From the NCBI GenBank assembly GCA_045561235.1, contig JBJKYB010000002.1:874942-938941 (forward strand): a stretch of DNA of 64,000 nt, in the 5' to 3' direction. The stretch is from Gammaproteobacteria bacterium (GTDB lineage: Bacteria; Pseudomonadota; Gammaproteobacteria; Poriferisulfidales; GCA-002705445). The notes below the pieces were generated by a model that did no database searches, had not been told where the DNA came from, and saw only the letters and a program-made list of their open reading frames with translations. Position 1 is the first letter of the stretch. Every line of letters begins with the position of its first letter. Shown one piece after another: positions 6,101 through 59,368 of this stretch. The position numbers were made by a program, and so were the translations under genes.

Positions 6101-6367
6101 AAAATTAAATGTCAAAGAGTTAATAAAGTAAGAGAAGGAAGAACTCACATAGTAGATATGATTAAAAATAATCAAATTGATTTGATCATAAATACAACGC
6201 AATCAAAACAAGCTATAAAAGATTCATATCTTATTAGACGCGAAGCACTAAATTATAAAGTTTGTTACACGACAACTATCGCTGCAGCAAATGCGCTAGT
6301 TAGCGCCATAGATTATTCTGAAAATTTAGATGTATATAAGTTACAGGATATTTTTAAGCTTGCGTAA
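3152..6367 (+). CDS. carB: Carbamoyl-phosphate synthase large subunit
   Basis: 1071 aa with two ATP-grasp halves ([21 protein letters not shown]... and [21 protein letters not shown]...) and C-terminal MGS-like domain. Confidence 0.95.
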
Positions 6368-6394
6368 AAATCTTATCAACTTCATAATTAACTT

Positions 6395-6868: not shown

Positions 6869-7472
6869 AAAAACAAATAATTGGTATAAAAGTCATATTA
6901 ATGACGAGTTTGTTAAGCTTGCAAATAAAGAAAACTGGCGCTCAAGAGCAGTATATAAATTAAAAGAAATTGATGAAAAATATGATCTGATTTCTTCAAA
7001 TTCAAAAATACTGGATCTTGGTAGTTCTCCAGGAGGTTGGAGTCAGTACGCGTCAAGAAAACATAAAAATATAACTATCACCGCTGTAGATCTATTAAAA
7101 ATGGAAAATATTGAAAATGTTAATTTTGTACAGTCAGATATTGAGGATTTTGGTAAAAATTACCTAAAAAACGGTTGTTTTGATAAAATTGACCTTGTAA
7201 TGTCAGATATTGCCCCTAATATAAGTGGTATAGATAGTGCTGATGTGCCAGCAATATTGAGTTTAGCAGAAATTGTGACAGATATTGCTTTAGGTAGTTT
7301 AAATGAATCAGGAAATTTGCTAATAAAGTTGTTTCAAGGAAAAGGTACTGACGAATATATAAAAGAAACAAAACAATTTTTTAAAAAGGTAAGAATTATT
7401 AAACCAAAAGCTTCAAGATCAAATAGTAGGGAAATATATATGTTGGCTTCAACACTTAGATTAAATGGATAA
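6861..7472 (+). CDS. rlmE: 23S rRNA (U2552-2'-O)-methyltransferase RlmE/FtsJ
   Basis: [12 protein letters not shown]...[14 protein letters not shown] and [13 protein letters not shown] motifs; immediately 5' of ftsH as in E. coli. Confidence 0.92.
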
Positions 7473-7487
7473 CTTAGGATAAAGATT

Positions 7488-37502: not shown

Positions 37503-38177
37503 ATGATCGGTGATAAGTTGGCATCGGCGATGCAATTATATGGCAATCCGAGTTGTATAAACACAGCTAAGGCATTGCAAACAGCCGCTGAAAAAGGCGT
37601 AGATATAGAAACTCATAAAATTGACAGTGGTGAGGAAGCTGCAGATATTTCTCCACTTCACAGTGCCCCAGTACTAAAAGACTTGGATAATATTGTTTAT
37701 GGTCCAAATGCTATAATCTCTTATTTAGATGACAAGGGTTTTGGTCCGTCACTAGTTCCTAGAAATGGTGTAATTAGAGCGATCATGTATCAATATGCTC
37801 ATATAGCGACAGATTACGTTCAAATGGAAGCTTACGGAATGTTAACTGGTTCTGGAGGTAATATGGATGTAGTTAACAAATCATTTGATATATTAGAAAA
37901 CATCTTAGCAAACCCGCCAGATCCAAAATTGAAAAAAGGCGTATACATTTGTGGTGAATTTTCATTAGCTGATATTCATTGGATGGCATGTGTAAATGCT
38001 TTAGAAATCTCAGGTAATGACGTAATATCGTCAAGGGCGAAAGTTAGCGAATGGTGTGCTGCTGTTAAAAGCCATCCATCAACAAGTAAAGAAGATATTA
38101 TTCCATATACGTGTCTTCCAACAAAAGAAGACGTTGATTCAGGCACATTAAGAAACGTTGGGATTAATGTAGTATAG
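37503..38177 (+). CDS. Glutathione S-transferase-fold protein (thioredoxin-like N-domain + helical C-domain)
   Basis: N-terminal LYGNPSC...APVL (cis-Pro) ...GPNAIISYL, C-terminal FSLADIHWMACVNAL N-capping-box motif; GC visibly higher than flanks. Confidence 0.6.
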   Translation: MIGDKLASAMQLYGNPSCINTAKALQTAAEKGVDIETHKIDSGEEAADISPLHSAPVLKDLDNIVYGPNAIISYLDDKGFGPSLVPRNGVIRAIMYQYAHIATDYVQMEAYGMLTGSGGNMDVVNKSFDILENILANPPDPKLKKGVYICGEFSLADIHWMACVNALEISGNDVISSRAKVSEWCAAVKSHPSTSKEDIIPYTCLPTKEDVDSGTLRNVGINVV

Positions 38178-38250
38178 GTTTTGGGTACTTGAAAATACGA
38201 CATTTTTTAACTAAATTAATTTTTTAAATACAAGGAATTAGTATATTTTT

Positions 38251-39318
38251 ATGTTTGGATTAGGTAAAAAGAAGGGCCCTCAGGAAGTCAGCTTAAATTC
38301 TGATCAATATAAATTCGAAGTTGACCCTGACCAAAATATTTTAGATGCTGCTTTAAAAGCTGGAGTCGCATTCCCGCATGATTGTAGAGTTGGTAGCTGT
38401 GGGTCATGCGCGTGCAAATTAACAGATGGTAAAATTACCGCTACAGCTGATTTTAGCTATGTATTAGATGGCGATCAGTTAAAGGATGGAATGATATTAG
38501 CTTGCCAGTCTCGAGCTAAAACTCCTTTAAGTATCGCTGTTGAAATTGATGGGGAAGCTAAAACTAGCCCAACAAAATCATACCAAGGAGTTGTAAATAA
38601 GATTACACCATTAACACACGATATAATGGAATTAACCGTAGGAGTTGAAGGTTTAGAACATAACGGATATGCGGGACAATACTCTGAACTTATGGTGAAG
38701 CAAGTAGGATCTTCAAGATCTTATTCATTTGCCAAAGCCCCTCAAAATGAAAATCCTAACGAATTATCATTTTTTATAAGAAATGTTCCAAAAGGAAGAT
38801 TTAGTAAATGGCTTTTTGGTAAAGATCCTACTGGGCAAAAACTAGAAGTTAATACTCCGTTTGGATCGTTTTATTATCGTGATGGCAAAGGTCCAATGGT
38901 TTGCATTGCGGGTGGTAGTGGCATGAGTGCTGTAAAAGCTATCTTAGAACAAGCCGCAATAGATCAAGTTGAAAGGGATGCTATATATTTGTTTGGAGCA
39001 AGAACACAAGAGGACATATATAGTAGATCCGATTTAGAAGATATTCAGAAAAAATGGAACCCTAATTATAAATTTGAGTTTGTTTATGTTTTAAATATGG
39101 AGCCAGAAGATTCTGACTGGACTGGTGCTAGAGGTATGGTAACTGACTTTTTAAAATCAGATTATATAGAAAAAGGTAAATTGAATATGAAAGAGTGTCA
39201 AGGTTATTTATGTGGCCCACCACCTATGATAGACGCCGCCATAAAAGAATTTACAGCTGAAGGCATGTCAAATGAAGAGATATTCTTTGATAAATTCTTA
39301 GATTCAGGGTCAAAATAA
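38251..39318 (+). CDS. NAD(P)H-dependent oxidoreductase: N-terminal plant-type 2Fe-2S ferredoxin fused to FNR-like FAD/NAD-binding domain (oxygenase-reductase / AscD type)
   Basis: CRVGSCGSCACKL...LACQ 2Fe-2S motif; RSYSFA FAD motif; IAGGSGMS NAD motif; C-terminal CGPPPM; no TM segment so not NqrF. Confidence 0.75.
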   Translation: MFGLGKKKGPQEVSLNSDQYKFEVDPDQNILDAALKAGVAFPHDCRVGSCGSCACKLTDGKITATADFSYVLDGDQLKDGMILACQSRAKTPLSIAVEIDGEAKTSPTKSYQGVVNKITPLTHDIMELTVGVEGLEHNGYAGQYSELMVKQVGSSRSYSFAKAPQNENPNELSFFIRNVPKGRFSKWLFGKDPTGQKLEVNTPFGSFYYRDGKGPMVCIAGGSGMSAVKAILEQAAIDQVERDAIYLFGARTQEDIYSRSDLEDIQKKWNPNYKFEFVYVLNMEPEDSDWTGARGMVTDFLKSDYIEKGKLNMKECQGYLCGPPPMIDAAIKEFTAEGMSNEEIFFDKFLDSGSK

Positions 39319-39386: not shown

Positions 39387-39614
39387 GTGAGAGAATATAT
39401 AGCAGCAATAGTTATGATAGTTTTTACATCCTTGTGTTTTTGGGGAATGAACGTATTTGGATTTCAAAATAATCCGCACGACATTCTTTGGTCTATAGGT
39501 GCCGGACTAGCCCTTTTAATTATACTTCTAATTAATGTTTATATTTATTTTGTAATTTGTAAAGAAACACCTTGGACATGGAAAAATGAAGAGTCTAGTG
39601 GTCAAGACGAGTAA
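39387..39614 (+). CDS. Small hypothetical 2-TM membrane protein (75 aa), GTG start
   Basis: Strong SD AGAGGAGA 6 nt upstream; two hydrophobic helices; 3' end overlaps xseA 3' end convergently by 20 nt. Confidence 0.45.
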   Translation: MREYIAAIVMIVFTSLCFWGMNVFGFQNNPHDILWSIGAGLALLIILLINVYIYFVICKETPWTWKNEESSGQDE

Positions 39615-40947
39615 TCTTCTTAACACTAGATGTAACTTCACCATCTTTAATTCTAATTTTAATATCACTTTTAATTTTAAAGTTTGAAATCTTATTAGCA
39701 ATTTTTCCATTTGAATATATTAATGAGTAACCTTTATCTAATATATTTAATGGACTTATATCTTTAATAGTATTTTTTTTTAAATTTAAAGAATTTTTAT
39801 TACTATTTATAATATTTAAAAAAAGGTTTTTAATAAATTCTTTATTATTATTTAGTTTAGATTGTAGCTCAAAAATTTTTGTCTGTGGATTTTCATTTTT
39901 TAATTGAATCATAAAATTATTTATTTCATTTTTTTCATGAATCAGATTTGAAAGTAATTTTGATCTAAGTGCTTCTTGAAATAATTCAATTTTTTGATAA
40001 TAGTTATCTATTTTTGTTAATGGATTATTATTATCTATGACATTTATTTTTTCTCTCAACTGGTATTTTAAATTATTTACATGTGTTTTTATTATATTTA
40101 TAAGATTATTTTTATACTCGTCTAAAGAATTTTGCAAATCATTCGAAGTTATACTTGTTGCGATTTCAGCAGCCTCAGATGGTGTCGCTGACCTCATATC
40201 TGATACTAAATCAGCGATTGTTGTATCAGTCTCATGACCTATTGCTGTAATAATTGGTATTTTTGAATTATATATTTGCCTTGCTAGGTATTCGTTATTA
40301 TATTCTATTAGATCTTCAAGCGAACCTCCTCCTCTAGCAATTATAATTATGTCAGATGTATTTTTTTTATTAATAGTTACAAGCTGCTTTATAATACTTG
40401 TTGCGCAATTTTTACCTTGGACATTACAAGCAAATACTTCAACGTTAATTCCGGAAACCCTTCGGTTTAGTATTTTTAATATATCTTGTAATACAGAACC
40501 TGTTAAAGAGGTAATTATAGATATATTTTTAGGGTATATGGGTAACTCTTTTTTGAATTTTGTTTCAAATAAACCTTCATTTTTTAACTTGAGTTTTAGT
40601 TTCTCAAATAGTTCATGAAATTCTCCAGCACCTGTAGAAGACATTCCAATAATATCTAGTTGATATGAGCCAGTCTTTTCATAAAAAGAGACTTTGGATT
40701 TAATTATTACCTTTAGTCCTATTTCTGGTTCTAAATCTAAGTTATTAACTCTTGAGTTCCATAACGTGCACCTTACAGAGCATTTTTCGTCTTTTAGAGT
40801 AATATAAATATGGCCTAGCTGGCTTTTTTGGAGTTGAGATATTTCTCCTTCAACCATTATATAACTAACAAATGATGTTTCTAAAACTTCTTTTATATAT
40901 CTATTAACATCACTTACACTATATATCTCACTATCACTATTTTTCAT
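39595..40947 (-). CDS. xseA: Exodeoxyribonuclease VII large subunit
   Basis: N-terminal OB fold (VEGEISQ...YITLKDE) and catalytic core (IIARGGGSLEDL); divergent from guaB exactly as in E. coli. Confidence 0.92.
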   Translation of the reverse strand: MKNSDSEIYSVSDVNRYIKEVLETSFVSYIMVEGEISQLQKSQLGHIYITLKDEKCSVRCTLWNSRVNNLDLEPEIGLKVIIKSKVSFYEKTGSYQLDIIGMSSTGAGEFHELFEKLKLKLKNEGLFETKFKKELPIYPKNISIITSLTGSVLQDILKILNRRVSGINVEVFACNVQGKNCATSIIKQLVTINKKNTSDIIIIARGGGSLEDLIEYNNEYLARQIYNSKIPIITAIGHETDTTIADLVSDMRSATPSEAAEIATSITSNDLQNSLDEYKNNLINIIKTHVNNLKYQLREKINVIDNNNPLTKIDNYYQKIELFQEALRSKLLSNLIHEKNEINNFMIQLKNENPQTKIFELQSKLNNNKEFIKNLFLNIINSNKNSLNLKKNTIKDISPLNILDKGYSLIYSNGKIANKISNFKIKSDIKIRIKDGEVTSSVKKITRLDH

Positions 40948-45598: not shown

Positions 45599-46525
45599 AT
45601 GCTTAATAATAATAATTATAATAATTTTAAAAAAATTTTATTCTTTACTTTTACCTTTTGTCTTTTTACAAATGCTTTTTCTGGCGCTGATGATGAAATT
45701 ATAATTGCTGCGGAGAAGAAAGCGCTAAATGCTACAAACGGGATATTAAGTACACTAACTTCAGATTTAACCGAAAGCTTAAAAAAATTCGAGAGTGTTA
45801 AGTATTTAGACATTAAAATTGACGTTCAAGAGCATTATAACCCTGCATTCAGTATTACAAATTTAAACAGCTTGTTTGAAAGAGATACCTCTGCATTTTT
45901 TAATCAAAATACCTTAACCCATAATAAAGATGAACAAACTATAAATTTTGGATTAGGATATAGAAAACTTTTGAATGATGATAAATTACTTTTAGGTGCT
46001 AACATTTTCTATGACTATGCTTTTGATGATAACCATAGAAGGTTGGGTTTAGGTGTTGAAGCAATATCAAGTGTATTTGATCTTAGAGGTAATTTATACG
46101 AAGCTGAAAGTGATGTAGTCACTTTAACAGATGGCTCGACGGAAGAAGCTTTAGATGGTTGGGATGCAAGACTTGATTATCATATACCAGTAGGCTTTGA
46201 TTTAAGAGTATTTGGCACATATTTTGATTGGGAAAATAGTGCGAAAACTTATGAAAATAAAGGTGAACAATACGGTTTAGCAGGACAATATGGTTTGATT
46301 AAGTTTGAAGTCGGTTATAGAGACGAAGATAATAGAAAAAAAGATGCTTTTGCAAATTTGAGCTTAGTAATTCCTCTAGGTTCTGTAGCAACATCAAATG
46401 TTGTTCCAAGGGGCATGATGGAATTGGTAAGTGTTAGAGATCAATTATATGAGCCCGTTGAGAGAGAAAATAGAATAAGAGTTGTAAAAGTTTCTGCTGG
46501 TAGTGTGATCGTAAGTGGATTTTAA
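45599..46525 (+). CDS. Outer-membrane beta-barrel protein resembling the inverse-autotransporter (intimin/invasin) beta-domain, but stand-alone (308 aa)
   Basis: Sec signal peptide; motif block LGANIFYDYAFDDNHRRLGLGVEAI...LRGNLYEAES...DGWDARLDYHIPVGF...FGTYFDWENS recalls the IAT beta-domain consensus; C-terminal aromatic (SGF). Confidence 0.5.
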   Translation: MLNNNNYNNFKKILFFTFTFCLFTNAFSGADDEIIIAAEKKALNATNGILSTLTSDLTESLKKFESVKYLDIKIDVQEHYNPAFSITNLNSLFERDTSAFFNQNTLTHNKDEQTINFGLGYRKLLNDDKLLLGANIFYDYAFDDNHRRLGLGVEAISSVFDLRGNLYEAESDVVTLTDGSTEEALDGWDARLDYHIPVGFDLRVFGTYFDWENSAKTYENKGEQYGLAGQYGLIKFEVGYRDEDNRKKDAFANLSLVIPLGSVATSNVVPRGMMELVSVRDQLYEPVERENRIRVVKVSAGSVIVSGF

Positions 46526-47640
46526 TGGGAGATACTATGTGCAAATCTGTAAAATTATTTTTATCATTATTGACTTTATTATTTTTTGTAAGCAACTCTG
46601 TTTATGCAGACACTCTTGGTGACGCGATAGATGCCGAAGGATGTGGAGATAGCGATACCGCATCTTGCTCAGGCGAATGTACCCAAACAAATAATGTTAT
46701 TACGATTGCAACTTCTGGTAATGATGATGGTGGGGTAACAGATGCAGATAGTGGTAATGTGAAAAACTTTTGTAATGAAAAGCCTGATGAATATCGTATT
46801 ACTTTTTATAAAGCGGGGTTATGTAAAATTGACCCTTTTGATTCAACTGCTACATCTAATCCAACTTCGGCTTCAAACTGTTACAATTTTTTTGTAGATG
46901 AAAGTGGCAAAGCGATAACTCTTGCTTATGATGATGATACTAGCTTAATTAGTCAAACTGGTAGCCTAATCTCAGGAAATCTTAACTTTGAATTAGGCAC
47001 GTATAATTTTGCTTACGTAATTGTTGACAATCACCTTGAAATTAAGCATCAACAAACTTTTAGTGAAGCTATGAAAGGGTATCATGTTAATGGGTCTGAT
47101 TATAGCTCAGGCGTCACATGCTGGACAAATGGTATTGTAACAACTTACACAAATGCAACAGGTGCTCAACGTGGCTATAACGCAGCTACCGTAAAATCTT
47201 ATGGTAACGATAGTAGCAGCACCTCCTCATTAGCAATGACATGCGGTGAAACTTCAGATGCTGCTCCAGTTTTTAATACAGAAATAATTGAAAATTTAGC
47301 TGCTGATCCAACGTTTCCCGATGGGAATGAAAACTCAACATTTTCAGCAATATTTGCATCAACCTATCAAACAATCACTGGAACATCAGATAAAGGTGTT
47401 GGAAAATTGTTGCAAGATGACGATTTAACTACAGCAACTAGTCATACAAATGCAGCGAGAATTTTTTATCCTGTTCAACTTGCGAACCCTCTTATTGTTA
47501 CTCCGGATATTAAAACATTTGAAATGTCTTTCGGTATATCTGGCTCTGTAAGTATTGATTTTACAACAGATGGATCTAATAATCTTATAAATTTAAAAGC
47601 TGGCGCTGATCCTTTTACAATGAAATTTAGCGCTGAATAA
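46525..47640 (+). CDS. Secreted acidic Cys/Thr/Ser-rich protein (possible surface/adhesin-like partner); ATG overlaps upstream stop (TAATG); alternative start ATG 46537
   Basis: Own Sec signal (MCKSVKLFLSLLTLLFFVSNSVYA|DT), 9 Cys, T/S/G/D-rich; GC much higher than surroundings. Confidence 0.6.
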   Translation: MGDTMCKSVKLFLSLLTLLFFVSNSVYADTLGDAIDAEGCGDSDTASCSGECTQTNNVITIATSGNDDGGVTDADSGNVKNFCNEKPDEYRITFYKAGLCKIDPFDSTATSNPTSASNCYNFFVDESGKAITLAYDDDTSLISQTGSLISGNLNFELGTYNFAYVIVDNHLEIKHQQTFSEAMKGYHVNGSDYSSGVTCWTNGIVTTYTNATGAQRGYNAATVKSYGNDSSSTSSLAMTCGETSDAAPVFNTEIIENLAADPTFPDGNENSTFSAIFASTYQTITGTSDKGVGKLLQDDDLTTATSHTNAARIFYPVQLANPLIVTPDIKTFEMSFGISGSVSIDFTTDGSNNLINLKAGADPFTMKFSAE

Positions 47641-47682
47641 ATTACCATAGTTTTTTTCTATATATCAAAGTAAAATTAGAAG

Positions 47683-48393
47683 ATGAAATATTCTAACTTG
47701 ACAATTTTTAATAATAATTTTTTAAAAAGATTCTCACATAATAAAAGATTTGATATAGCAATAAATATATTAAAAAATAATTATTTAAAGAATGATTTAA
47801 ATATCTTAGATTACGGAACAGGAAGTGGTGATTTTTTAAAAAAACTTGAACACGATATTCCAAATTTGAAGAATATTTCGGGGTATGAGCCTTTGATAGA
47901 AAGATATAGTGAGGTTTTTGAAAATGTATCAAATTATGAAAATATATTTGTTTATAAGTCTATTAATGAAATTAGACAAAAATTTGACGTAATATTTTGT
48001 ATGGAAGTTTTTGAGCATTTAAATAAAAAATTTTTATTAGAAGCTCTTGATAATATTTCTAATTTACTTTCAAAAAAAGGTGTTTGTATAGTTTCGGTTC
48101 CAATTGAGACTGGTTTTGGTGGTTTTTTAAAAAATATTGTTAGAATTCTAATAGGTGAAACTCATGAGAATGGAACCTTAAAAAACCTTTTTAAGATTTT
48201 GCTTGGAATTAAAATTGAAAGAGATGAAGACGGTGATTACATTTCTTCACACGTGGGTTTTTCTCATTATGAATTAGAGGAATTAATAAAAATAGAAAAA
48301 TTCAGAATAAAAAAGAAATATTATTCTCCTTTCTCATATTTTGGACCCCAATTAAACTCCCAAGTTTTTTTTATAATTGATAAAAAAAATTAA
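47683..48393 (+). CDS. Class I SAM-dependent methyltransferase
   Basis: Motif I LDYGTGSGDF, motif II FDVIFCMEVFEHL; very AT-rich. Confidence 0.75.
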   Translation: MKYSNLTIFNNNFLKRFSHNKRFDIAINILKNNYLKNDLNILDYGTGSGDFLKKLEHDIPNLKNISGYEPLIERYSEVFENVSNYENIFVYKSINEIRQKFDVIFCMEVFEHLNKKFLLEALDNISNLLSKKGVCIVSVPIETGFGGFLKNIVRILIGETHENGTLKNLFKILLGIKIERDEDGDYISSHVGFSHYELEELIKIEKFRIKKKYYSPFSYFGPQLNSQVFFIIDKKN

Positions 48394-48396
48394 TTC

Positions 48397-48945
48397 TTAT
48401 ATTTTGCCATCCAATCCCATTTGATAATATTTATGAACTATACTTTCTTGATTTTCTAGCAACCAATCAATACTAGGTTCATTTTTCATTGCTTTTTGAA
48501 TTGCTTGTGCAGTAGCTTTTCTGTGAATATCAAACAAAATTTTATGATCAAGATTATCGTCGTCGATTACTGATGGATTTAACCATACTGAAACTATAAT
48601 ACCTAAATCATTTGCTTTTTCTTTTGGAATATCCCCATTTCTAACAGCATCAAGAACACCGTTCGCAATAGCTCCTTGAACTGTTCCCATTAATATATTG
48701 GTATATTTTGTATCTTTGACGGTAACCTTGCTCACCATCAAAGTTGCAGGCTTAACCATAATATCTGTATTCATAATTGCTAAAACTCTTGAATGACCTT
48801 TAACTTGATCACCAAGAAGTGTCGCAAATGCTGTTCCAACAGGGCCGTCAAGCTCTCCAATCACTACTTCAGGCTCTGCTGCTGTTCCTGGAGGTCCGCC
48901 AGCAACCAAAGATTCAGCAACCCTCATTACAATTCTATCACTCAT
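48397..48945 (-). CDS. Formaldehyde-activating enzyme (Fae) family protein
   Basis: 182 aa collinear with H4MPT-dependent Fae (VAESLVAGG..., VVIGELDGPVGTAF, KPATLMVSKVTV, GAIANGVLDAVRNGDIP, EPS...); GC clearly above local background. Confidence 0.65.
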   Translation of the reverse strand: MSDRIVMRVAESLVAGGPPGTAAEPEVVIGELDGPVGTAFATLLGDQVKGHSRVLAIMNTDIMVKPATLMVSKVTVKDTKYTNILMGTVQGAIANGVLDAVRNGDIPKEKANDLGIIVSVWLNPSVIDDDNLDHKILFDIHRKATAQAIQKAMKNEPSIDWLLENQESIVHKYYQMGLDGKI

Positions 48946-49042
48946 TTATATACTCCTTGAATATTAATAGATTTAATTTAATACTTATTTAATTTAAGAA
49001 TGCATAATAACAATATAACTTTACTAGTGCCACGAGATATTT

Positions 49043-49495
49043 ATGAATCATGAATTTTATATAAAAGAATGTATTGCGCTTGCAAAAATATCTGAAGAAT
49101 ATGGAGAAATACCAGTTGGAGCTATATTATTGCAAAAAAATAAAATTATCTCTAAGGCTCATAACACCTCAATAAGTCTAAGCGACCCTACGGGCCATGC
49201 AGAAATTAATGCAATAAGAGACGCTTGTAAAAAAATAAAAAATTATAGAATTAAAAATGCTGCTTTATATGTAACTCTTGAACCATGCTTAATGTGTATT
49301 TCTGCAATATGTGAAGCAAGAATAGATCTTGTGGTTTTTGGGGCATATACAAACGACGAAAAAAATTTTTATAAAAAATTTGATTTTATTACAAAAGAAT
49401 TTAGATTTAATCACAAGCCAAAGTTTATTGGGGGTATTTTAGAAAATGAATGCTCAATTCTTATGAAAGATTTCTTTAAAGCTAAGAGAGGCTAG
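49043..49495 (+). CDS. tadA: tRNA-specific adenosine deaminase TadA
   Basis: CMP/dCMP deaminase zinc motifs HAEINA and PCLMCISA; adjacent to a lytic transglycosylase as in E. coli (tadA-mltF). Confidence 0.88.
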   Translation: MNHEFYIKECIALAKISEEYGEIPVGAILLQKNKIISKAHNTSISLSDPTGHAEINAIRDACKKIKNYRIKNAALYVTLEPCLMCISAICEARIDLVVFGAYTNDEKNFYKKFDFITKEFRFNHKPKFIGGILENECSILMKDFFKAKRG

Positions 49496-50323
49496 ATAGG
49501 TTTTTTTATCTTCATGGATAATATTTAGATAAGCTTGAATTCTCTTGACATAATTCACAGGTTCCTTTCCTCTGGCATAGCCATATTTTGTATTTTTATA
49601 AAATTTTTTCAGTCTTAACAGCGGCAGATGTTTTTTAACGTCGGACCAATAATTTGGATTATGCCCAAATCTCTCTGTAATTATTCTTGCATCTTCCAGA
49701 TGACCTAAACCAACATTATAAGCTGCCAAAGTCATCCATATTCGGTCTGAGCCAACAACAGACTTGGGAAGTCTTTTAAAAATATTTTCTAAATATTTTA
49801 CTCCTCCAAATACACTTTGATTTGGATCTAATCTATCCTTTATCCCTATATAACTTGCAGTATCTTTAGTTAACATCATAAGACCTTTAACTTTTGTTTT
49901 TGAAACTGCTTTATGATTCCAATGAGATTCTTGATAAGAAATTGCAGCTATTAGTTCCCATGAAAAAATTGAATTTCTAGTATGTTTTTTAAAATACCCA
50001 ATATACTTAGGTAATCTTTTATCTATTTTTTTAATAAATATTTTCTTTTCAACTTGGTTTAAATTATTATCTTCATTGATAGAAAGATATATGTCTTTTT
50101 TAATTAAACATCTTTGTTCGCTAGTTGACAAAGGAGCTTCAATATTTTTAAAAGTATGGTTGCCAGTAAAACCAAAGGTACAAATTATTGGTAGAATATA
50201 AAGATTTATATATTTGTTTGAAATACTCTGTTTTTTGAATTTCCAAGTATTGATATATTTCACCCTTTTCCCTAGTACTTGGAACAATATTTTAACACTA
50301 CATATTGTGTTTTTCAAATGCAT
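49454..50323 (-). CDS. Lytic murein transglycosylase, SLT domain only (MltF-like C-terminal module with N-terminal signal anchor)
   Basis: ISYQESHWNHKAVSKTKVKGLMMLT (ES...GLMQ-type SLT motif), AAYNVG; no periplasmic binding-protein domain; 3' end overlaps tadA 3' end by ~40 nt. Confidence 0.75.
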   Translation of the reverse strand: MHLKNTICSVKILFQVLGKRVKYINTWKFKKQSISNKYINLYILPIICTFGFTGNHTFKNIEAPLSTSEQRCLIKKDIYLSINEDNNLNQVEKKIFIKKIDKRLPKYIGYFKKHTRNSIFSWELIAAISYQESHWNHKAVSKTKVKGLMMLTKDTASYIGIKDRLDPNQSVFGGVKYLENIFKRLPKSVVGSDRIWMTLAAYNVGLGHLEDARIITERFGHNPNYWSDVKKHLPLLRLKKFYKNTKYGYARGKEPVNYVKRIQAYLNIIHEDKKTYLASLSFKEIFHKN

Positions 50324-50518: not shown

Positions 50519-52330
50519 ATGGCTACTATTCCAGGTTTAGTGCTTTCGCATAATCAAAAGCATCCCGATGGCATTGCCCTAAGATACAAACAATTAGGCA
50601 TATGGAATTCATATAATTGGGCTGATTATTATCGCGAAGTGAACTTAATAGCAAATGCTTTAAAGTCTCTTTCTATTAAAAAAGGCAGTATAATTGCGGT
50701 TTATGGAAACAATGTTCCCAAACTTATTTTTTCTATCGCTGCAATTCAATCTTTAGGCGCTATTGTGGTTCCTATTCATCCGGAATCAACAGGGGAAGAA
50801 TTAGAAAAAATCCTAGCAGGTTCAAAAGCAGAAATTTTAATAGCTGAAGACCAACAACAGGTTGATACATTTTTAGATATAAAGTCTGATTGCGAAATTA
50901 AAAGTCTTATTTATTTAGATGGAAGAGGAATGTCTAAATACTCAAATGACATATTGTTTTCATATGATAATCTTATAGAAAAATCAAATGAATCAAGTAT
51001 AGAAAATGATATAAACTCTATTAGTGAAAATGATATTGCTTTTTATCTTTATGATGAATATGAAGATTCAATTTATAAAGTTTCTCACGCGGCAATAATT
51101 AATAATAGCTCGAAAATCATCACTTTAAATAATTTGACAGAAAAAGACTCTATTGTTTCCTTTCTGCCGTTGTCAATACCAACAAATTTACTATTTACAT
51201 TTGTTACTTCCTTGACAAGCGGAATGTCGTTAAATTTACCTGAAAGTAACCAAACTATAGAAAAAGATTTGCAAGAAATAGGCCCAACAATATTATATGC
51301 ACCTTCTTTTGTATATAAACATATTATTACATCAATAAGTTACAGAATAGAATCTGCAACACAATCTAACTATGATAGATATATGAAACATTATGAAATA
51401 TTAATGGATACTTATAATAAAGAAGTAAGTGGGGAAAATTCAACACTGGATAAAATAAAAAAAATGTGGGTTATGCTTACAACGTTTGCTCCAGCCAAGA
51501 ACGTATTTGGCTTAACAAATATAAAGCATGCCTTTGTAAGTGATGGGGTTCTATCAAAAGTAAACTTCGACTTCTTTCATGCGATAGGTGTTGAGATACA
51601 ACATTCTTTTGGACAAGCTTCATCCTGTGGATGTATTTCCGTCCAACCAGATCATTCTGTTTCTTCAGAAAATGTTGGTTCGGCGATGGCAGGTAATGAA
51701 ATTATGATCAATGACAATTCAGAAGTTTGTTTTAAATCAGACTGCTTAGCAGAACTGTTAAATGGTGAAGCAAGTTCCCAAGATGGGTGGGTGAACTCTG
51801 GTTTCATTGGTAGCCTTGACGATTCAAAAAATATTGTAATTAGTGGAAGAACCGAAGATGTAATTTCCTTAAAATCTGGTAAACAATTTTCACCTGAAAG
51901 TATAGAAAATTTAATTTCTTGTTCACCATTTGTGAAATCTGCAGTAGTTGTCGGAAACAATCAAGAATCGAACTCTGCAATCGTTGTAATAGATCCAAAT
52001 TCAGTAAACTCATGGGCTGATAGAAAAAATATTAGATATACCGGTTATACTGAATTAGCTGGTAAAGACGAAGTTAGAGAGCTAATAAAAGAACATATTT
52101 GTTGTGTAAATGAAACTCTCGACTCAGAGCTTAAAGTAAAAAAGTTTGTTATATTACATAGAACATTTGTAATGTCGCAAGGAGAAGTTTCAAAAACTAT
52201 GGAAGTTATGAGGAAAAATATAGAGGTAAATTTAAAGGATGTTTACCAAGCAATTGATTCTAAAAAAGATAGCTTCGAAGTAAATGATATTGATCAGTTA
52301 TCTTATGAACTTAGTTTTAATAAAATATAA
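50519..52330 (+). CDS. Adenylate-forming (AMP-binding/acyl-CoA synthetase-like) superfamily protein with degenerate core motifs
   Basis: Overall ANL-fold collinearity and length (603 aa), but P-loop TSGTTGxPKG position reads YDEYEDSIYK, YGxTE reads SFGQAS, TGD reads SGF; first gene of Liv-type ABC cluster. Confidence 0.6.
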   Translation: MATIPGLVLSHNQKHPDGIALRYKQLGIWNSYNWADYYREVNLIANALKSLSIKKGSIIAVYGNNVPKLIFSIAAIQSLGAIVVPIHPESTGEELEKILAGSKAEILIAEDQQQVDTFLDIKSDCEIKSLIYLDGRGMSKYSNDILFSYDNLIEKSNESSIENDINSISENDIAFYLYDEYEDSIYKVSHAAIINNSSKIITLNNLTEKDSIVSFLPLSIPTNLLFTFVTSLTSGMSLNLPESNQTIEKDLQEIGPTILYAPSFVYKHIITSISYRIESATQSNYDRYMKHYEILMDTYNKEVSGENSTLDKIKKMWVMLTTFAPAKNVFGLTNIKHAFVSDGVLSKVNFDFFHAIGVEIQHSFGQASSCGCISVQPDHSVSSENVGSAMAGNEIMINDNSEVCFKSDCLAELLNGEASSQDGWVNSGFIGSLDDSKNIVISGRTEDVISLKSGKQFSPESIENLISCSPFVKSAVVVGNNQESNSAIVVIDPNSVNSWADRKNIRYTGYTELAGKDEVRELIKEHICCVNETLDSELKVKKFVILHRTFVMSQGEVSKTMEVMRKNIEVNLKDVYQAIDSKKDSFEVNDIDQLSYELSFNKI

Positions 52331-52354: not shown

Positions 52355-53122
52355 ATGTCAGATATCTTAAAAGTAGAAAACGTAACACTTCAATTTGGTG
52401 GTGTAAAAGCAATTACTGATATTAGTTTTAATGTTAAGGAAGGTGAGATTTGTGCTGTAATTGGCCCTAATGGAGCCGGAAAAAGCTCAATGTTAAATGT
52501 TATTAATGGTGTATATCTTCCACAAATAGGAACAGTTACTTATGACGGTGTTGAGAGAAGATCTATTAATCCAAGAGATGCTGCAATTGCAGGCATGGCA
52601 AGAACATTCCAAAACATTGCGTTATTCCAAGGTATGACTGTTTTAGAAAATATTATGACAGGTAGGAATTTATTTATGAAATCGTCTTGGTTAGAACAAG
52701 GTTTAAATATCGGTAGAGCTAGACAAGAAGAAAAAGTAAATAGACTTGCAGTTGAAAAGGTAATAAAATTTTTACAAATTGAGTCTATTAGAAAAACTCC
52801 AGTAGCAAAATTACCATACGGTCTTCAAAAAAGAGTTGAGTTAGGAAGAGCATTAGTTGCAGAACCTAAGATTTTATTGCTCGATGAGCCTATGGCGGGA
52901 ATGAACTTAGAAGAAAAAGCGGATATGTCTTGTTTTATTTTGGAGATAAATAAAGAACAAGGAATTACAACTGTTATGATTGAGCATGATATGGGAGTGG
53001 TAATGGATATTTCTGATCATGTGGTAGTATTGGATTATGGAAAAAAAATAGGTGATGGTTCACCAAAAGAAGTTATGGCGAACCAAGATGTTATTGATGC
53101 ATATCTTGGAGTCAGTCACTAA
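52355..53122 (+). CDS. ABC transporter ATP-binding protein, LivG-like
   Basis: Walker A GPNGAGKSS, signature/Walker B LLLDEPMAGMN, H-loop; LivG-like C-terminal extension. Confidence 0.88.
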   Translation: MSDILKVENVTLQFGGVKAITDISFNVKEGEICAVIGPNGAGKSSMLNVINGVYLPQIGTVTYDGVERRSINPRDAAIAGMARTFQNIALFQGMTVLENIMTGRNLFMKSSWLEQGLNIGRARQEEKVNRLAVEKVIKFLQIESIRKTPVAKLPYGLQKRVELGRALVAEPKILLLDEPMAGMNLEEKADMSCFILEINKEQGITTVMIEHDMGVVMDISDHVVVLDYGKKIGDGSPKEVMANQDVIDAYLGVSH

Positions 53123-53137
53123 ATAGGGGTAATAAAA

Positions 53138-54067
53138 ATGGATTGGGTTTATTTGATAGAAGTGTTAGTAGGCGGATTAATGTCAGGAGTAATGTACTCT
53201 CTTGTAGCCATTGGTTTTGTGTTAATTTATAAATCATCAGGCATATTTAATTTCGCCCAAGGAACTATGCTTTTATTCGCCTCTTTAACTTTTGTTAAAA
53301 TGACGGAGAATGGAATAGATTTTTGGACTGCATTATTTATAGCAGCAGGCATAATGGTTATATTTGGTGTTGCAACCGAACGGTATGTAATAAGACCATT
53401 AGCAAACCAGGATCTTCTTGCTTTATTCATGGCAACAGTTGGTTTGGCTACTTTCCAAGAGGGCTTTTCTCAATTCATTTGGGATTCAGACGTTCACGGA
53501 CTGCAAATGAGCAAATTCCTTGATATAGGTTTACTTGACCCAGCGCCAATATTTATGTCAGATCATATTCCCTGGCTGGACATTTTAATTCCAAAATTTG
53601 ATATCTTTGCATCATTAGTTGCTGGATCACTTATTGTAGTTTTAGCATTCTTCTTTCAAAAAACTAAGACAGGGCTATCTTTAAGAGCGGTGTCAGACGA
53701 TCATATGGCTGCAATGGCAGTCGGTATTCCTTTACAAACAGTTTGGGCTGTGGTCTGGGCTGTTACAGGTGTTATTGCATTAGTTGCTGGTTTATTATGG
53801 GCTGAAAGAGTGAGTGTTTCATTTACGTTAATTGAAGCGGTAATGAAAGCATTGCCAGTTATTTTAATTGGCGGATTGACTTCTATTCCTGGTGCTATTA
53901 TTGGTGGATTAGTAATTGGTGTTGGTGAAAAATTAGGTGAAATCTATTTAGCTGATGTATTTGGGGGACAAGGAATAGAATTATGGTTTGCCTACTTTAT
54001 GGCATTAATATTCCTTGTATTTAGACCTCAGGGTATGTTTGGCGAAAAATTAATTGAAAGGGTATAA
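53138..54067 (+). CDS. ABC transporter permease, LivH-like
   Basis: Branched-chain amino acid permease family topology and motifs (NFAQGTMLLF, IPGAIIGG). Confidence 0.85.
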   Translation: MDWVYLIEVLVGGLMSGVMYSLVAIGFVLIYKSSGIFNFAQGTMLLFASLTFVKMTENGIDFWTALFIAAGIMVIFGVATERYVIRPLANQDLLALFMATVGLATFQEGFSQFIWDSDVHGLQMSKFLDIGLLDPAPIFMSDHIPWLDILIPKFDIFASLVAGSLIVVLAFFFQKTKTGLSLRAVSDDHMAAMAVGIPLQTVWAVVWAVTGVIALVAGLLWAERVSVSFTLIEAVMKALPVILIGGLTSIPGAIIGGLVIGVGEKLGEIYLADVFGGQGIELWFAYFMALIFLVFRPQGMFGEKLIERV

Positions 54068-54071
54068 ATAA

Positions 54072-55166
54072 ATGATATATAGAGAAACTGGAAATTTTGT
54101 AACTAACTACTTTAAAGATAGAGAAATTTTTCCAATGAAATTTGATAAAGTTGTAGTAGTGTTAGGATTACTATTTCTTTTTTTATATGTACCAACAACA
54201 TCAGAATATGTTCTAAGTGCCCATGTTATTCCAATTTTGGCTGTAGGGTTAGCAACAGTTGGTCTTAATATATTAACAGGACTAACAGGACAACTTTCAC
54301 TGGGAACTGCTGGATTTATGTGCGTAGGAGCATTTGGTACTTATAATCTTATGTTGAGAATGCCTGAAGAATTAATGTCTTTACCTTTTGCTTTGCTTCT
54401 TTCTGGTATATTTGCAGGATTGGTAGGTATTATTTTTGGTTTACCGGCTATTAGAATTAAAGGTTTTTACTTATTAGTATCTACGTTGGCAGCTCAATAT
54501 TTTGTATGGTGGTTTTTTAATTCGTACGCGTGGTTTTTAAATTACGAATCCTCAGGAGTAGTAGCTATTGCGCCAAAATTTTATGACTATTGGGGTTTAG
54601 GCGATCTGCTAGGTGTAGACATGCAAGGTTACCCAGCAAGGTATCTATTAGCTTTAACTATTTGTATAGGATTGACTTATTTTGCGAAGAACTTATTGAG
54701 AAGTAATACGGGCAGAAACTTTATGTCTGTTCGTGATAGAGATATTGCTGCCAGTGTTATGGGGATTAGCGTTCCAAGAACAAAGCTATTGGCATTCTTT
54801 GTTAGTTGTTTTTACTGTGGTGTTGCTGGCGGTATTTATTCGTTTTTATATATTGGTAATGTTGATTTAATGATTTACGAAATTGATCGTTCTTTCACAA
54901 TACTATTTATGTTAATTATTGGGGGATTGGGGTCTATCTCGGGTTCGTGGTTAGGAGCAATTTTTGTATATGAATTCCCAATTGTATTTACTTGGATAGG
55001 TGATTTTATTTTCCAAGGTGCCTTTAACACAGCTGTTGTAGAAAATGTATCAAATATGGTTTATGGTATATTTATAATTGCATTATTAATTAGGGAACCA
55101 GGTGGATTTGCGGCTTTATGGGGAACTACAAAACAAAAATTAAGAATGTGGCCATACCCACATTAA
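54072..55166 (+). CDS. ABC transporter permease, LivM-like
   Basis: LTGLTGQLSLGTAGFMCVGAFGTY motif typical of LivM permeases. Confidence 0.85.
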   Translation: MIYRETGNFVTNYFKDREIFPMKFDKVVVVLGLLFLFLYVPTTSEYVLSAHVIPILAVGLATVGLNILTGLTGQLSLGTAGFMCVGAFGTYNLMLRMPEELMSLPFALLLSGIFAGLVGIIFGLPAIRIKGFYLLVSTLAAQYFVWWFFNSYAWFLNYESSGVVAIAPKFYDYWGLGDLLGVDMQGYPARYLLALTICIGLTYFAKNLLRSNTGRNFMSVRDRDIAASVMGISVPRTKLLAFFVSCFYCGVAGGIYSFLYIGNVDLMIYEIDRSFTILFMLIIGGLGSISGSWLGAIFVYEFPIVFTWIGDFIFQGAFNTAVVENVSNMVYGIFIIALLIREPGGFAALWGTTKQKLRMWPYPH

Positions 55167-55982
55167 TTGAAAGAGGAAAAAATGTCTGAATCTTTGCTAA
55201 AAGTAAATAACATAGAAGTTGTATATAATCATGTAATTTTAGCATTACGTGGAGTTACACTTGATGTTGAAGAAGGAAAAGTGGTTTCTTTATTAGGTGC
55301 TAACGGCTCTGGAAAAACAACAACATTAAAAGCTTGTTCAAATCTGTTGCACGCCGAGCGGGGAGCAATAACAAAAGGTTCAATAGAGTATCAAGGAAAT
55401 GACATCGCAACATCCGACGCTTATAACCTTGTGAAAGACGGAGTAGTGCAGGTTCTTGAAGGTAGACATTGTTTTGCACACCTGACAGTTGAAGAAAATA
55501 TAATGACTGGCTCTTTCATCAGAGAAAATTCAAAAGAAGCAAAGCAAGATCTTGAGAGAGTTTATGATCATTTTGAAAGAATTAGGATAAGAAAAAAGAG
55601 TTTAGCTGGATTTACTTCTGGTGGTGAGCAGCAAATGATTGCGATGGGTAGAGCTCTAATGTCTAGACCAAAATTAATTTTATTAGACGAGCCCTCAATG
55701 GGTTTAGCTCCTCAGTTAGTAGAGGAAATATTTGCAATAGTAAAAAACTTAAATAAAGAAGGTGTAAGTTTCTTGATAGCAGAGCAGAATGCTATGGTAG
55801 CTCTTAAATATGCAGACGATGGTTATATAATTGAGAATGGAAGAGTAATTCTTAAAGGAAAAGCCCAAGAATTATTAGAAAGACCTGATGTAAAAGAAAT
55901 GTATTTAGGTGTTGGTGCTGAGGGTCAAACAAGTTTTAGGGATATCAAGTATTACCATAGAAGAAAACCATCATTTAGTTAA
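55167..55982 (+). CDS. ABC transporter ATP-binding protein, LivF-like
   Basis: Walker A GANGSGKTT, LSGGEQQM signature, ILLDEPSMGLAP. Confidence 0.88.
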   Translation: MKEEKMSESLLKVNNIEVVYNHVILALRGVTLDVEEGKVVSLLGANGSGKTTTLKACSNLLHAERGAITKGSIEYQGNDIATSDAYNLVKDGVVQVLEGRHCFAHLTVEENIMTGSFIRENSKEAKQDLERVYDHFERIRIRKKSLAGFTSGGEQQMIAMGRALMSRPKLILLDEPSMGLAPQLVEEIFAIVKNLNKEGVSFLIAEQNAMVALKYADDGYIIENGRVILKGKAQELLERPDVKEMYLGVGAEGQTSFRDIKYYHRRKPSFS

Positions 55983-56471
55983 GTCTAACTCTGTTTTACT
56001 TATAATTATCCCATCTGAGTCGGCATAAATATAATCACCAGGTTTAAATGTTACTCCCATAAACTTTACATCGATATTTTCTTCACCAATTCCTTTTTTA
56101 ACGCTTTTCACAGGTTTTGTACTTAGGGCTAATACTCCTATATCTATATTTGCAATTACATCAGAATCTCTAATACAACCATTAACAATAATTCCTGACC
56201 AATTATTTTTAAAAGCAGCTTCAGCTAATATATCTCCTAACAAGGCACATTCCATTGATGCATTTCCATCAACAACAAGTACTTTGTTTAAGCCATCTGA
56301 ATTTACAGCTTCTCTTACTTTTGAATTATCATTAAGACATTTTATTGTACTAATCTTGCCGAAAAAAGACTCTTTTTTACCATAACTATTAAATTGTTGA
56401 TGCATGATTATAAGATCATCACTATAAAGATCGCACAAATCAGCTGTTTTAAAATTTTTGTTTTTTTCCAT
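55971..56471 (-). CDS. rraA: RraA family protein (regulator of RNase E activity A / oxaloacetate decarboxylase-type); start at internal ATG 56471 (ORF track extends to 56555)
   Basis: ADLCDLY...LVVDGNASMECALLGDILAEAAFKNNWSGIIVNGCIRD...FMGVTFKPGDYIYADSDGIIIS collinear with E. coli RraA. Confidence 0.85.
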   Translation of the reverse strand: MEKNKNFKTADLCDLYSDDLIIMHQQFNSYGKKESFFGKISTIKCLNDNSKVREAVNSDGLNKVLVVDGNASMECALLGDILAEAAFKNNWSGIIVNGCIRDSDVIANIDIGVLALSTKPVKSVKKGIGEENIDVKFMGVTFKPGDYIYADSDGIIISKTELDLTK

Positions 56472-56702
56472 GTAAATTAATAATTTATGATATTTTTTTA
56501 GAAAATAATTTAAATATAGATTGTAAATTTTATCATTATATAAAATTTTTATCAAAGATATTGAAATAGTTGGGGACTAAAGGGAAATAAATTGCTAATA
56601 TACGCACCCTAAATGACTCTATATTTTCAAGAATATTCAGTACAACAACTATAATAAAAGAATTAATTAAATTATTATTTCTAAATACATCAGGAGACTA
56701 AG

Positions 56703-58007
56703 ATGGATAGAAAAAAACAAATCAAGCAGCTAGAAGACGAATGGAAAAATAATCCTCGATGGAAGAACGTTAAAAGAGGTTATACTGCTGAAGATGTTGT
56801 AAGACTCAGAGGTTCATTTGTGCCGGAATGCAGTTTAGCAAAAAAAGGTGCAGATAAGCTGTGGTCGCTAGTTAATGGTAGCGCTAAAAAAGGTTATGTA
56901 AACAGTTTAGGAGCATTAACAGGTGGACAGGCAATGCAACAAGTTAAAGCCGGTATTGAGGCAATTTACTTATCTGGTTGGCAAGTTGCAGCGGATGCAA
57001 ATACATCAGAAACAATGTATCCCGACCAATCACTTTATGCTTATGATTCTGTTCCAACCGTAGTAAGAAGAATTAATAATAATTTTAAAAGAGCTGATGA
57101 AATTCAATGGGCAAAAGATATCAATCCTGGCCATAAAGACTATATAGATTATTTTGCACCAATTGTAGCTGATGCCGAGGCTGGATTTGGTGGCGTGCTA
57201 AATGCATTTGAATTAATGAAAAATATGATAATTAACGGAGCCGCAGGTGTACATTTTGAAGATCAATTAGCAGCTGCAAAGAAATGTGGTCATATGGGTG
57301 GTAAAGTTTTAGTACCATCGCAAGAAGCTGTTCAAAAATTAATTGCGGCAAGATTAGCTTCAGACGTAATGGGCGTCCCAACGTTATTATTAGCAAGAAC
57401 AGATGCCGAAGCTGCAAACCTAATAACTTCTGATGCTGACGAGTACGACAAGCCATTCTTAACTGGAGAAAGAACTGCTGAGGGTTTCTATAGAACGAAA
57501 AATGGAATAGATCAAGCTATATCAAGGGGTTTAGCTTATGCTCCATATGCAGATTTAATTTGGTGTGAAACAGGAACTCCTGATTTGGAATTTGCAAAAA
57601 CTTTTGCTGAGGCTATACGAGCTGAACATCCAGATCAATTATTAGCTTATAATTGTTCACCTTCATTTAATTGGAAGAAAAATTTAGACGATGCTACTAT
57701 TGCAAAATTCCAAGACGAATTGAGTGCAATGGGCTATAAATACCAATTTATAACTTTAGCAGGTGTTCATAATATGTGGTATAACATGTTCGATCTTGCT
57801 CATTCATATGCAGCTGGCGACGGGATGAAACATTATGTTGAAAAGGTCCAAGAGCCAGAGTTTGCTGCTGCTGACAAAGGATACTCATTTGTTAGCCATC
57901 AACAGGAGGTTGGTGCAGGTTATTTTGATGACGTTACGACTGTAATTCAGGGTGGAGAATCATCTGTTACAGCTTTAACGGGTTCAACTGAAGAAGAACA
58001 GTTTTAA
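56703..58007 (+). CDS. aceA: Isocitrate lyase
   Basis: Signature [13 protein letters not shown] plus full-length collinearity. Confidence 0.95.
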
Positions 58008-58042
58008 AATAACAATTTTACATAACTAGGAAGAGTTATATT

Positions 58043-59368
58043 ATGTTTAAACATATAGAAATTCCAAACAATGGAAGCAAAATTTCTTTTGATGAAAAGA
58101 ATAATCTTGTTGTTCCCAATAATCCAATAATTCCTTTTATTCAAGGAGATGGTATTGGTTTGGATATAACCCCAGTTATGCAAAATGTTGTTGATAGCGC
58201 AGTTGAAAAAGCTTATGGCGGTGAAAAAAAAATTTATTGGATGGAAGTTTATGCTGGTGATAAAGCTGTTGAAAAATATGGGTCGCATAATTATTTACCA
58301 AAAGAAACATTTGATGCCATTGAGGAATTTGTTGTTGCAATTAAAGGCCCTTTGACTACTCCTGTCGGTGAAGGTTTGAGGTCTTTAAACGTTGCAATAA
58401 GACAAGAGATGGATTTATTCGCCTGTGTTAGACCTATAAAATATTTTCCTGGCACCAGAACGCCATTAAAAAGTTCAAGTACTACCGATATGGTAATTTT
58501 TAGGGAAAATACAGAGGATATATATGCTGGAATTGAGTGGGCTGCTCAAACAGACGATGTTAAGAAAGTCTTAAACTTCTTAATAACAGAAATGAAAGTC
58601 AGTGGAATTAGATTTCCTGACAGTTCTGGTATAGGTATAAAACCGGTTTCAGAAGAAGGCTCAATTAGATTAATAAGAAAAGCAATTGAGTATGCAATAG
58701 ATAATGATAGAAAATCAGTATCATTAGTCCATAAAGGAAATATCATGAAGTTTACTGAAGGGGCTTTTAGAAATTGGGGTTATGAGCTTGCAGTTAATGA
58801 GTTCAATGGCGAGATAATTGATGACGGACCGTGGTGTAAAATTATAAATCCGAATAATGGAAATGAGATTATTATAAAAGATGTTATAGCTGATAACTTT
58901 CTACAACAAATACTTTTACGTCCCGAGGATTATGATGTAATTGCAACCTTAAATTTGAATGGAGATTATATTTCTGATGCTTTGGCTGCACAAGTTGGAG
59001 GTATTGGAATAGCCCCCGGCGCAAATATATCTAATAAAGTTGCCGTTTTTGAAGCTACTCATGGTTCTGCTCCAAAGTATGCTGGAAAAAATAGGGTAAA
59101 TCCCGGTTCAATAATCTTATCAGCCGAAATGATGCTTCGTTATATAGGATGGACCGAGGCGGCAGACAAAGTCATGAATGGTGTCGCTCAAGCAATAGCA
59201 AATAAAACTGTAACTTACGACTTAGCAAGAGTGAGAGCAGGTATGCAGACACTTGTGAAAAAACATGAGCACGGTCAGGAGATACGAAAAGATCTTGAAG
59301 AATTAATGCCAGGTGCTACATTAGTTACATGTAGTGGATTTGGAGATGCTATTATTGATTGCATGTAA
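58043..59368 (+). CDS. icd: NADP-dependent isocitrate dehydrogenase (homodimeric Icd type)
   Basis: Near-collinear with E. coli Icd ([61 protein letters not shown]-terminal GDAIIDCM). Confidence 0.96.

Follow-up and report, generated by a model that had tools for sequence, protein, structure and literature searches.

The window analysed here is a 64-kb stretch of contig JBJKYB010000002.1. It carries on its minus strand a gene (Table 1) that an initial annotation had read as an orphan member of the formaldehyde-activating enzyme (Fae) family, whose canonical enzyme condenses formaldehyde with tetrahydromethanopterin (H4MPT). The gene is real, and its product adopts the Fae fold. A profile search bears out the proposed full-length alignment with Fae: PF08714 is matched at 201.3 bits (E 1e-59, cut-off 27) by residues 10-173, which correspond to model positions 2-158 of 159. 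All the motif blocks named in the initial annotation are found in the protein, as VAESLVAGG, GPVGTAF, KPATLMVSKVT and DAVRNGDIP. PF08714 is the only Pfam family matched; no signalling or DNA-binding domain and no GCV_T domain was detected in the protein. An identical protein is present on 61 contigs, Tara and GORG records among them. The nearest genomes are metagenome-assembled genomes (MAGs) and single-amplified genomes (SAGs) of marine Gammaproteobacteria, in agreement with the suggested marine gammaproteobacterial host. The start codon is supported by conservation of the N-terminus MSDRIVMRV among orthologs. The promoter-like site listed in Table 1 lies in the 97-bp divergent intergenic region that the gene shares with tadA; since a consensus scan of this AT-rich region returned 9 sites against 5.7 ± 2.1 expected, the evidence for it is weak. 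A search for an intrinsic terminator 3′ of the gene found none.

Sequence comparison shows that the protein falls outside canonical Fae. Its identity to Fae of Methylobacterium extorquens is 30-31% (31% by BLASTP), and canonical representatives share 44-66% identity with that enzyme, but only 30-39% with the window protein. Even Fae from archaea has 50-51% identity to the M. extorquens protein, and defined function is limited to the bacterial and archaeal Fae groups (PMC11748545). On the equivalog model TIGR03126 the window protein scores 128.9 bits, narrowly above the cut-off of 118.05; its clade orthologs score 120-130 bits versus 190-260 for canonical Fae, and the clade member on plasmid pLVM1 falls below the cut-off with 106. 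The window protein is a single domain and reaches 101 bits on the model for the archaeal bifunctional Fae-Hps fusion (NF009833), for which the cut-off is 274.

The divergence includes a residue to which a catalytic role has been ascribed. His22 of M. extorquens Fae was reportedly proposed as the acid catalyst by Acharya et al. in 2005, and a histidine stands at this position in 16 of 19 canonical representatives. In the window protein the position is occupied by Glu24, and that of Asp24 by Glu26. Both glutamates belong to a GTAAEPE motif that is invariant in 178 unique clade sequences, replaces the canonical A-H-[IV]-D and carries a two-residue insertion. A second segment, FIHWEA, has become WLNPSV in the window protein. 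We refer to this separate branch of the Fae family, which is under extraordinary constraint, as EPE-type Fae-like. The pocket residues typical of the family (KPxT, Gln90, Asp99 and the Gly/Pro turns) are nevertheless kept. Pro66 and Thr68 of KPxT are the only two columns invariant over the whole family alignment, and Gln90, retained in the clade, is nearly invariant family-wide; its M. extorquens counterpart, Gln88, is said by Acharya et al. (2005) to flip upon pterin binding.

The Fae α/β fold is confidently predicted to be kept. An AlphaFold2 model built on a diverse family alignment has a mean predicted local distance difference test (pLDDT) score of 93.5 and a predicted template-modelling score of 0.89; a shallow clade-only alignment gave a pLDDT of 37.6, and that model was discarded. 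Foldseek superimposes the retained model on 1Y60 (chain 1Y60_D), the complex of Fae with methylene-H4MPT, over 172 columns (template-modelling scores 0.86/0.93, root-mean-square deviation 1.7 Å, E 2e-17).

Automatic pipelines name the protein 'formaldehyde-activating enzyme / 5,6,7,8-tetrahydromethanopterin hydro-lyase'. The first part of this label is probably an over-call and the H4MPT hydro-lyase assignment is probably wrong; it would wrongly imply H4MPT-linked one-carbon (C1) metabolism in abundant marine Gammaproteobacteria. The H4MPT-dependent true Fae implied by the initial annotation is likewise not supported, given 31% identity, a glutamate for His22 and a TIGR03126 score half that of canonical Fae. 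We consider it decidedly unlikely that the protein is a divergent but functional H4MPT-dependent Fae with the rest of the pathway elsewhere in the genome, although it passes the TIGR03126 cut-off (128.9 versus 118) and shares the fold of 1Y60. Most named carriers of the clade do have H4MPT, and in one Methylophilaceae ecotype the H4MPT pathway is complete although fae2 is present and true fae is not (PMC4109929). However, besides the replaced histidine and the halved profile scores, no gene for H4MPT metabolism, methanol dehydrogenase or methylamine dehydrogenase was found in the 64 kb (nuoK-N and about five short open reading frames (ORFs) unscanned), and none for H4MPT metabolism within 10 kb of about 80 orthologs, as judged by reading the representative sequences of neighbour clusters. 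Contigs of about 1.06-1.1 Mb with 31-32% G+C occur among the closest genomes, and a genome so small would be unlikely to hold the 20 or more genes for H4MPT and methanofuran. In M. universalis, moreover, fae2 and fae3 cannot substitute for fae1 (PMC5023235). The claim that C1-pathway genes are absent from the window is thus borne out by ORF annotation, and the description of the gene as an orphan stands for the window and for ±10 kb around the orthologs, but not beyond that range.

Close relatives of the protein are encoded in more than 500 species-level genomes. An exhaustive library at 50% identity holds only 824 Fae-family representatives; essentially a single cluster takes in the whole clade, and beyond it the nearest relatives of full length show 43-46% identity. 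The best 80 of the more than 500 relatives are 84-97% identical to the window protein. Their carriers are MAGs and SAGs of low-GC marine Gammaproteobacteria, further Gammaproteobacteria reaching 69% G+C, and the genera Methylobacillus, Methylophilus, Methylovorus and Methylotenera, whose orthologs are 84-86% identical (ABE50631.1 in Methylobacillus flagellatus KT). The 178 unique 182-residue sequences have a median pairwise identity of 88%, with 78 of the 182 columns invariant. This median spans Beta- and Gammaproteobacteria whose loci range from 28 to 69% G+C. The version in Methylobacteriaceae is 74% identical; it is found on a Methylobacterium plasmid and, via the 90% cluster, on the chromosomes of M. 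extorquens AM1 (ACS41093.1), CM4 and relatives, where it is annotated 'Formaldehyde activating enzyme-like protein'. The 'fae2' of M. aquaticum belongs to a different group (39% identity). One marine ortholog is recorded on at least 1000 contigs, Tara samples included. Within the window's own clade the Fae-like protein is 93-97% identical, versus 75-83% for guaA, 83-92% for IMP dehydrogenase and 56-71% for tadA. The clade is among the slowest-evolving proteins of these genomes, and its high identity across bacterial classes reflects extreme purifying selection on an old gene.

In the low-GC marine gammaproteobacterial lineage this is an old, vertically inherited, stand-alone core gene. The ten closest genomes (L001-L010) share a syntenic order of ATP-binding cassette (ABC) transporter, acyl-CoA ligase-like gene, lytic transglycosylase (SLT), tadA, Fae-like gene, symporter and guaA, and tadA adjoins the Fae-like gene in all ten contigs that carry the identical protein. 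In a neighbour-joining tree the sequences group by lineage and synteny type. Against the syntenic orthologs the synonymous divergence (dS) is 1.1-1.9, near saturation, with a ratio of non-synonymous to synonymous divergence (dN/dS) of 0.015-0.03; against other lineages dS is fully saturated. A search for phage carriage gave no match, and the sole close plasmid copy is in Methylobacterium.

The initial annotation had called the gene compositionally distinct and proposed that it was horizontally acquired. Its G+C content (36.2%) is indeed 5 points over the window's ORF mean (31.2 ± 3.9%; +1.3 standard deviations, rank 8 of 57), but the description is overstated, because G+C at third codon positions (GC3) is native (0.208 versus a window mean of 0.201 ± 0.029). 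Only first positions (GC1) are raised (0.53 versus 0.41 ± 0.06), and this follows from a conserved protein rich in Gly, Ala, Val, Asp and Glu, not from foreign DNA. Transfer inferred from composition was therefore rejected, and horizontal acquisition fails on the same native GC3, the tadA-Fae-symporter-guaA synteny in ten relatives, a tree that follows lineages and near-saturated dS. A recently acquired foreign gene, possibly non-functional in its host, would account for the elevated G+C, for a strand opposite to that of the immediate neighbours and for the variable three-gene island next door. It would not account for a GC3 equal to the host mean, for the same place beside tadA in 10 of 10 related genomes and 10 of 10 metagenome contigs, for near-saturated dS with dN/dS of about 0.02, for a strong ribosome-binding site, or for the lack of any phage match and the restriction of close plasmid copies to Methylobacterium. 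We regard it as highly improbable, and the recent-transfer reading is effectively refuted.

A conserved operon partner across lineages was sought and rejected: even the most frequent neighbour cluster is shared by just 27 of the 81 loci, and the contexts consist of lineage-specific housekeeping genes. Three independent contexts outside the window's lineage nevertheless agree in what they suggest. On pLVM1 of Methylobacterium sp. DM1 (locus L081, 1508-10041) the Fae-like gene closes a cluster encoding a DmmA-family subunit, a DmmB-like reductase and a DmmC-like (HODM) subunit, together with N-methylglutamate-synthase-like (mgsABC-like) genes and a gmaS-like gene for a type III glutamine synthetase; the 18.5-kb stretch of the plasmid examined contains no dmmD of GcvT type. 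This plasmid is conjugative, and its methylated-amine island is compact, flanked by insertion sequences and also holds a small globin gene. In Methylophilaceae UBA6140 (L086) the Fae-like gene directly follows a PAS/HisKA_3/response-regulator two-component set. Its neighbours there include a DmmC-like gene (62% identity to that of the plasmid), HutD, N-formylglutamate amidohydrolase (FGase) and SoxB/D/A-like genes of the N-methylglutamate-dehydrogenase type, with Fae-like, HutD and FGase genes in one run in that order (6001-8009). In a Methylobacillus MAG (L077, 8700-10078) the stop codon of the Fae-like gene overlaps the start of the FGase gene. All three contexts thus hold genes that release formaldehyde or handle glutamate-bound C1 units, and the coupling to FGase in two Methylophilaceae lineages suggests a link to the latter.

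This coupling could also mean that the carrier is not a pterin, for example that the protein forms or resolves a formaldehyde adduct of glutamate or another amine, leading to N-formylglutamate that an FGase-family enzyme would split. The stop/start overlap in L077, the Fae-HutD-FGase run in L086 and the replaced catalytic histidine would all fit. However, only two lineages have FGase as a neighbour, while the window and the other loci lack it, no oxidoreductase for producing the N-formyl compound is regularly linked, and the idea is purely inferential; we consider it quite unlikely.

Our best explanation, which we hold tentatively, is that EPE-type proteins capture formaldehyde onto a carrier, perhaps tetrahydrofolate (H4F), in a His-independent manner. 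Formaldehyde and the C1 carrier would bind at the subunit interface, and their condensation would be sped up or channelled, with Glu24 and Glu26 as a putative acid/base pair. In a cell oxidising the methyl groups of amines or other methylated compounds, the formaldehyde released could in this way be trapped before it does damage. The carrier would most likely be a reduced pterin; in lineages without H4MPT this would be H4F, giving methylene-H4F for FolD-type oxidation. Several published observations bear on such a role. Methylamine induces fae3 of M. universalis about 12-fold (PMC5023235), DmmD has been proposed to conjugate demethylation-derived formaldehyde with H4F (PMC5520151), pelagic methylotrophs that lack H4MPT are assumed to rely on formaldehyde and H4F condensing slowly by themselves (PMC6794327), and Fae homologs have been proposed to function with H4F (PMC11748545).

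Several points weigh against His-independent capture of formaldehyde. The association with demethylation genes is seen in only 3 of about 14 distinct contexts, none of them in the window's lineage, and tblastn found no N-methylglutamate-pathway, dmm or FGase genes near the window gene or in its clade. For His22 a catalytic role was reportedly proposed by Acharya et al. (2005), and for clade members both catalysis and the identity of the carrier are inferred. Published knock-outs of fae2 and fae3 show normal growth (PMC5023235, PMC11748545), and fae3 of M. alcaliphilum fails to complement a fae mutant of M. extorquens (PMC11748545); the orthology of these genes to the clade is unproven. Most named carriers (Methylophilaceae, Methylobacteriaceae) have H4MPT, so that independence of H4MPT is conjectural, and no cultured H4MPT-less OM43 or 'Ca. 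Methylopumilus' was found among the carriers. The TMED100 locus (L039) is nearest to a 'Burkholderiaceae bacterium' MAG, and fae goes unmentioned in the OM43 literature looked at.

The normal growth of knock-outs would also fit a non-catalytic sensor of formaldehyde or C1 status, or a regulatory partner protein. Sensing and signalling roles have been proposed for Methylophilaceae Fae homologs (PMC3728764, PMC4109929), the gene in L086 directly follows a two-component set, and conservation over nearly the whole sequence (78 of 182 columns) would suit multiple protein-protein contacts. Yet the protein consists of one Fae domain, lacks any domain for signalling or DNA binding and has no conserved partner gene, in most lineages its gene stands alone among unrelated housekeeping genes, and the family-wide pocket residues are kept. 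We therefore judge a sensor role unlikely and continue to favour formaldehyde capture. A bolder form of the capture proposal casts the EPE-type clade as a possible missing enzyme for activating formaldehyde onto H4F or another non-H4MPT carrier, and as a core gene of H4MPT-less marine bacterioplankton that are abundant and streamlined. Although we think this unlikely, its truth would mean that the formaldehyde-to-H4F step, long deemed spontaneous, is enzyme-catalysed in the ocean and tied to the demethylation of methylated amines. The function of the clade bears on whether capture of formaldehyde onto folate is enzyme-assisted, and its extreme conservation, environmental abundance and His-to-Glu switch make it a worthwhile biochemical target. 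The invariance of that switch, the recurrent proximity of demethylase genes and the fact that M. extorquens AM1, a genetically tractable strain, has an ortholog offer a concrete and testable route to function.

Table 1. Positions in the window of the Fae-like gene, its signals, its key codons and the adjoining features
Feature	Position	Strand	Basis
Fae-like coding sequence	48397..48945	minus	ATG-to-TAA ORF, 182 aa, single Fae domain, without fusion partner
Shine-Dalgarno AAGGAG	48953..48958	minus	7 nt 5′ of ATG, read from sequence
Promoter-like GTGGCA-18-TATTAT (with TG)	49004..49033	minus	consensus scan, weak
Glu24-Pro25-Glu26 codons	48868..48876	minus	HMMER alignment to 1Y5Y; MAFFT family alignment
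Lys65-Pro66-Ala67-Thr68 (KPxT) codons	48742..48753	minus	family alignment
Gln90 codon (M. extorquens Gln88)	48676..48678	minus	family alignment
tadA (tRNA adenosine deaminase)	49043..49495	plus	Pfam; divergent neighbour conserved in lineage
Variable three-gene island, between the Fae-like gene and a Na/sulfate-type symporter	45599..48393	plus	Pfam; sister-genome comparison

The window itself is core chromosome. Its annotated genes include dnaJ, dapB, carAB, greA, rlmE, ftsH, glmM, tpiA, secG, nuoA-J and typA, along with the nusA-infB-rbfA-truB-pnp cluster, xseA, guaB/guaA, isocitrate lyase, isocitrate dehydrogenase, dnaX and recR, and a branched-chain-type ABC transporter is also encoded. All annotated ORFs are housekeeping or transport genes save one glutathione S-transferase (GST)-like and one reductase-type gene. 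The Fae-like gene is opposite in strand to its two immediate neighbours, as the initial annotation had noted, but the extension of this to all neighbours does not hold, because three other window genes lie on the minus strand (SLT at 49454-50323, next but one to the Fae-like gene, and the genes at 39595-40947 and 55971-56555).

On its 3′ side the Fae-like gene is bounded by the variable island, the convergent stop codons being 3 nt apart. The island encodes an inverse-autotransporter beta-domain protein (45599-46525), a 371-residue protein rich in Ser, Thr, Asn and Asp with a signal-like N-terminus and no Pfam match (46525-47640), and an S-adenosylmethionine-dependent methyltransferase (47683-48393). 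It is missing in L001, L002, L005 and L007-L010 and partial in other sister genomes. Its extent also differs among contigs with an identical Fae-like protein, in some of which the methyltransferase stands alone. The island is not part of the Fae unit.

On the other side, tadA on the plus strand and the SLT-domain lytic transglycosylase gene on the minus strand are convergent and overlap at their 3′ ends by 42 nt (49454-49495), an arrangement found in all contigs with the identical protein. The ABC transporter of branched-chain-amino-acid type (52355-55982) is 89-100% identical across sister genomes, matching the conservation of the Fae-like protein; the AMP-binding (acyl-CoA-ligase-like) gene that adjoins it (50519-52330) is only 67-81% identical. 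Isocitrate lyase and isocitrate dehydrogenase, the branch point of the glyoxylate shunt, are encoded side by side and co-oriented (56703-59368), which supports heterotrophy on acetate or fatty acids. The DnaJ homolog (254-1189) has 311 residues, of which 2-146 and 145-311 match the DnaJ model. The match skips model positions of about 145-205, the Cys-rich zinc-finger region, and the protein may represent a DnaJ without zinc finger from a streamlined genome. The GST-N-domain protein is followed by a Fer2/FAD_binding_6/NAD_binding_1 reductase (37503-39318) of the type that serves as an electron-transfer component of oxygenases; no oxygenase partner is visible nearby.

The closest known systems include Fae of M. 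extorquens AM1 (PDB 1Y5Y/1Y60; EC 4.2.1.147). The two proteins share the Pfam family over their full length, the fold, a similar size (182 versus 170 residues), KPxT, the glutamine at Gln88/Gln90, the aspartate at Asp97/Asp99 and the Gly/Pro turns. They differ by His22 to Glu, Asp24 to Glu, the two-residue insertion before the motif and the change from FIHWEA to WLNPSV, and the Fae-like protein, unlike the AM1 enzyme, has an extra conserved C-terminal tail, HKYYQMGLDGKI. In contrast to fae of AM1, the Fae-like gene lies outside an H4MPT gene cluster, and its clade is far more conserved (median 88%) than canonical Fae (44-66% to the M. extorquens enzyme). With DmmD and other GcvT-domain proteins there may be a functional analogy, proposed from the gene context on pLVM1 (dmmABC-like genes and no dmmD), but there is no relationship in sequence or fold. 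With the glutathione-dependent formaldehyde-activating enzyme Gfa the Fae-like protein would share the concept of speeding up a condensation between formaldehyde and a carrier that otherwise proceeds spontaneously; Gfa, however, belongs to an unrelated family, and no glutathione-pathway genes are linked to the Fae-like gene.

A further parallel is offered by the Fae2/Fae3 paralogs, which were described some 20 years ago. These proteins (groups 2-4 of PMC11748545; Methylophilaceae, Methyloversatilis, Methylotuvimicrobium) also belong to the Fae family outside its canonical groups and are encoded by stand-alone genes. They accompany true fae in methylotrophs, without known function (PMC4109929, PMC3728764, PMC5023235, PMC11748545), and our clade likewise co-occurs with a separate canonical fae in Methylobacillus, Methylophilus, Methylovorus, Methylotenera (PMC4109929) and M. 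extorquens, 1Y5Y being the AM1 enzyme. The gammaproteobacterium of the window differs in being marine, streamlined and heterotroph-like, and in having no C1 genes near this one. The clade corresponds to one of the Fae2/Fae3-type paralog groups. Its distribution, which takes in every Methylophilaceae genus sampled, fits Fae2, which is universal in that family (PMC4109929), and the methylamine-gene contexts echo Fae3 of M. universalis; we assign neither label. The remark in the initial annotation that Fae-like paralogs of unknown function exist outside methylotrophs was the correct reading: the gene joins these already recognised paralogs and is not a horizontally acquired methylotrophy gene.

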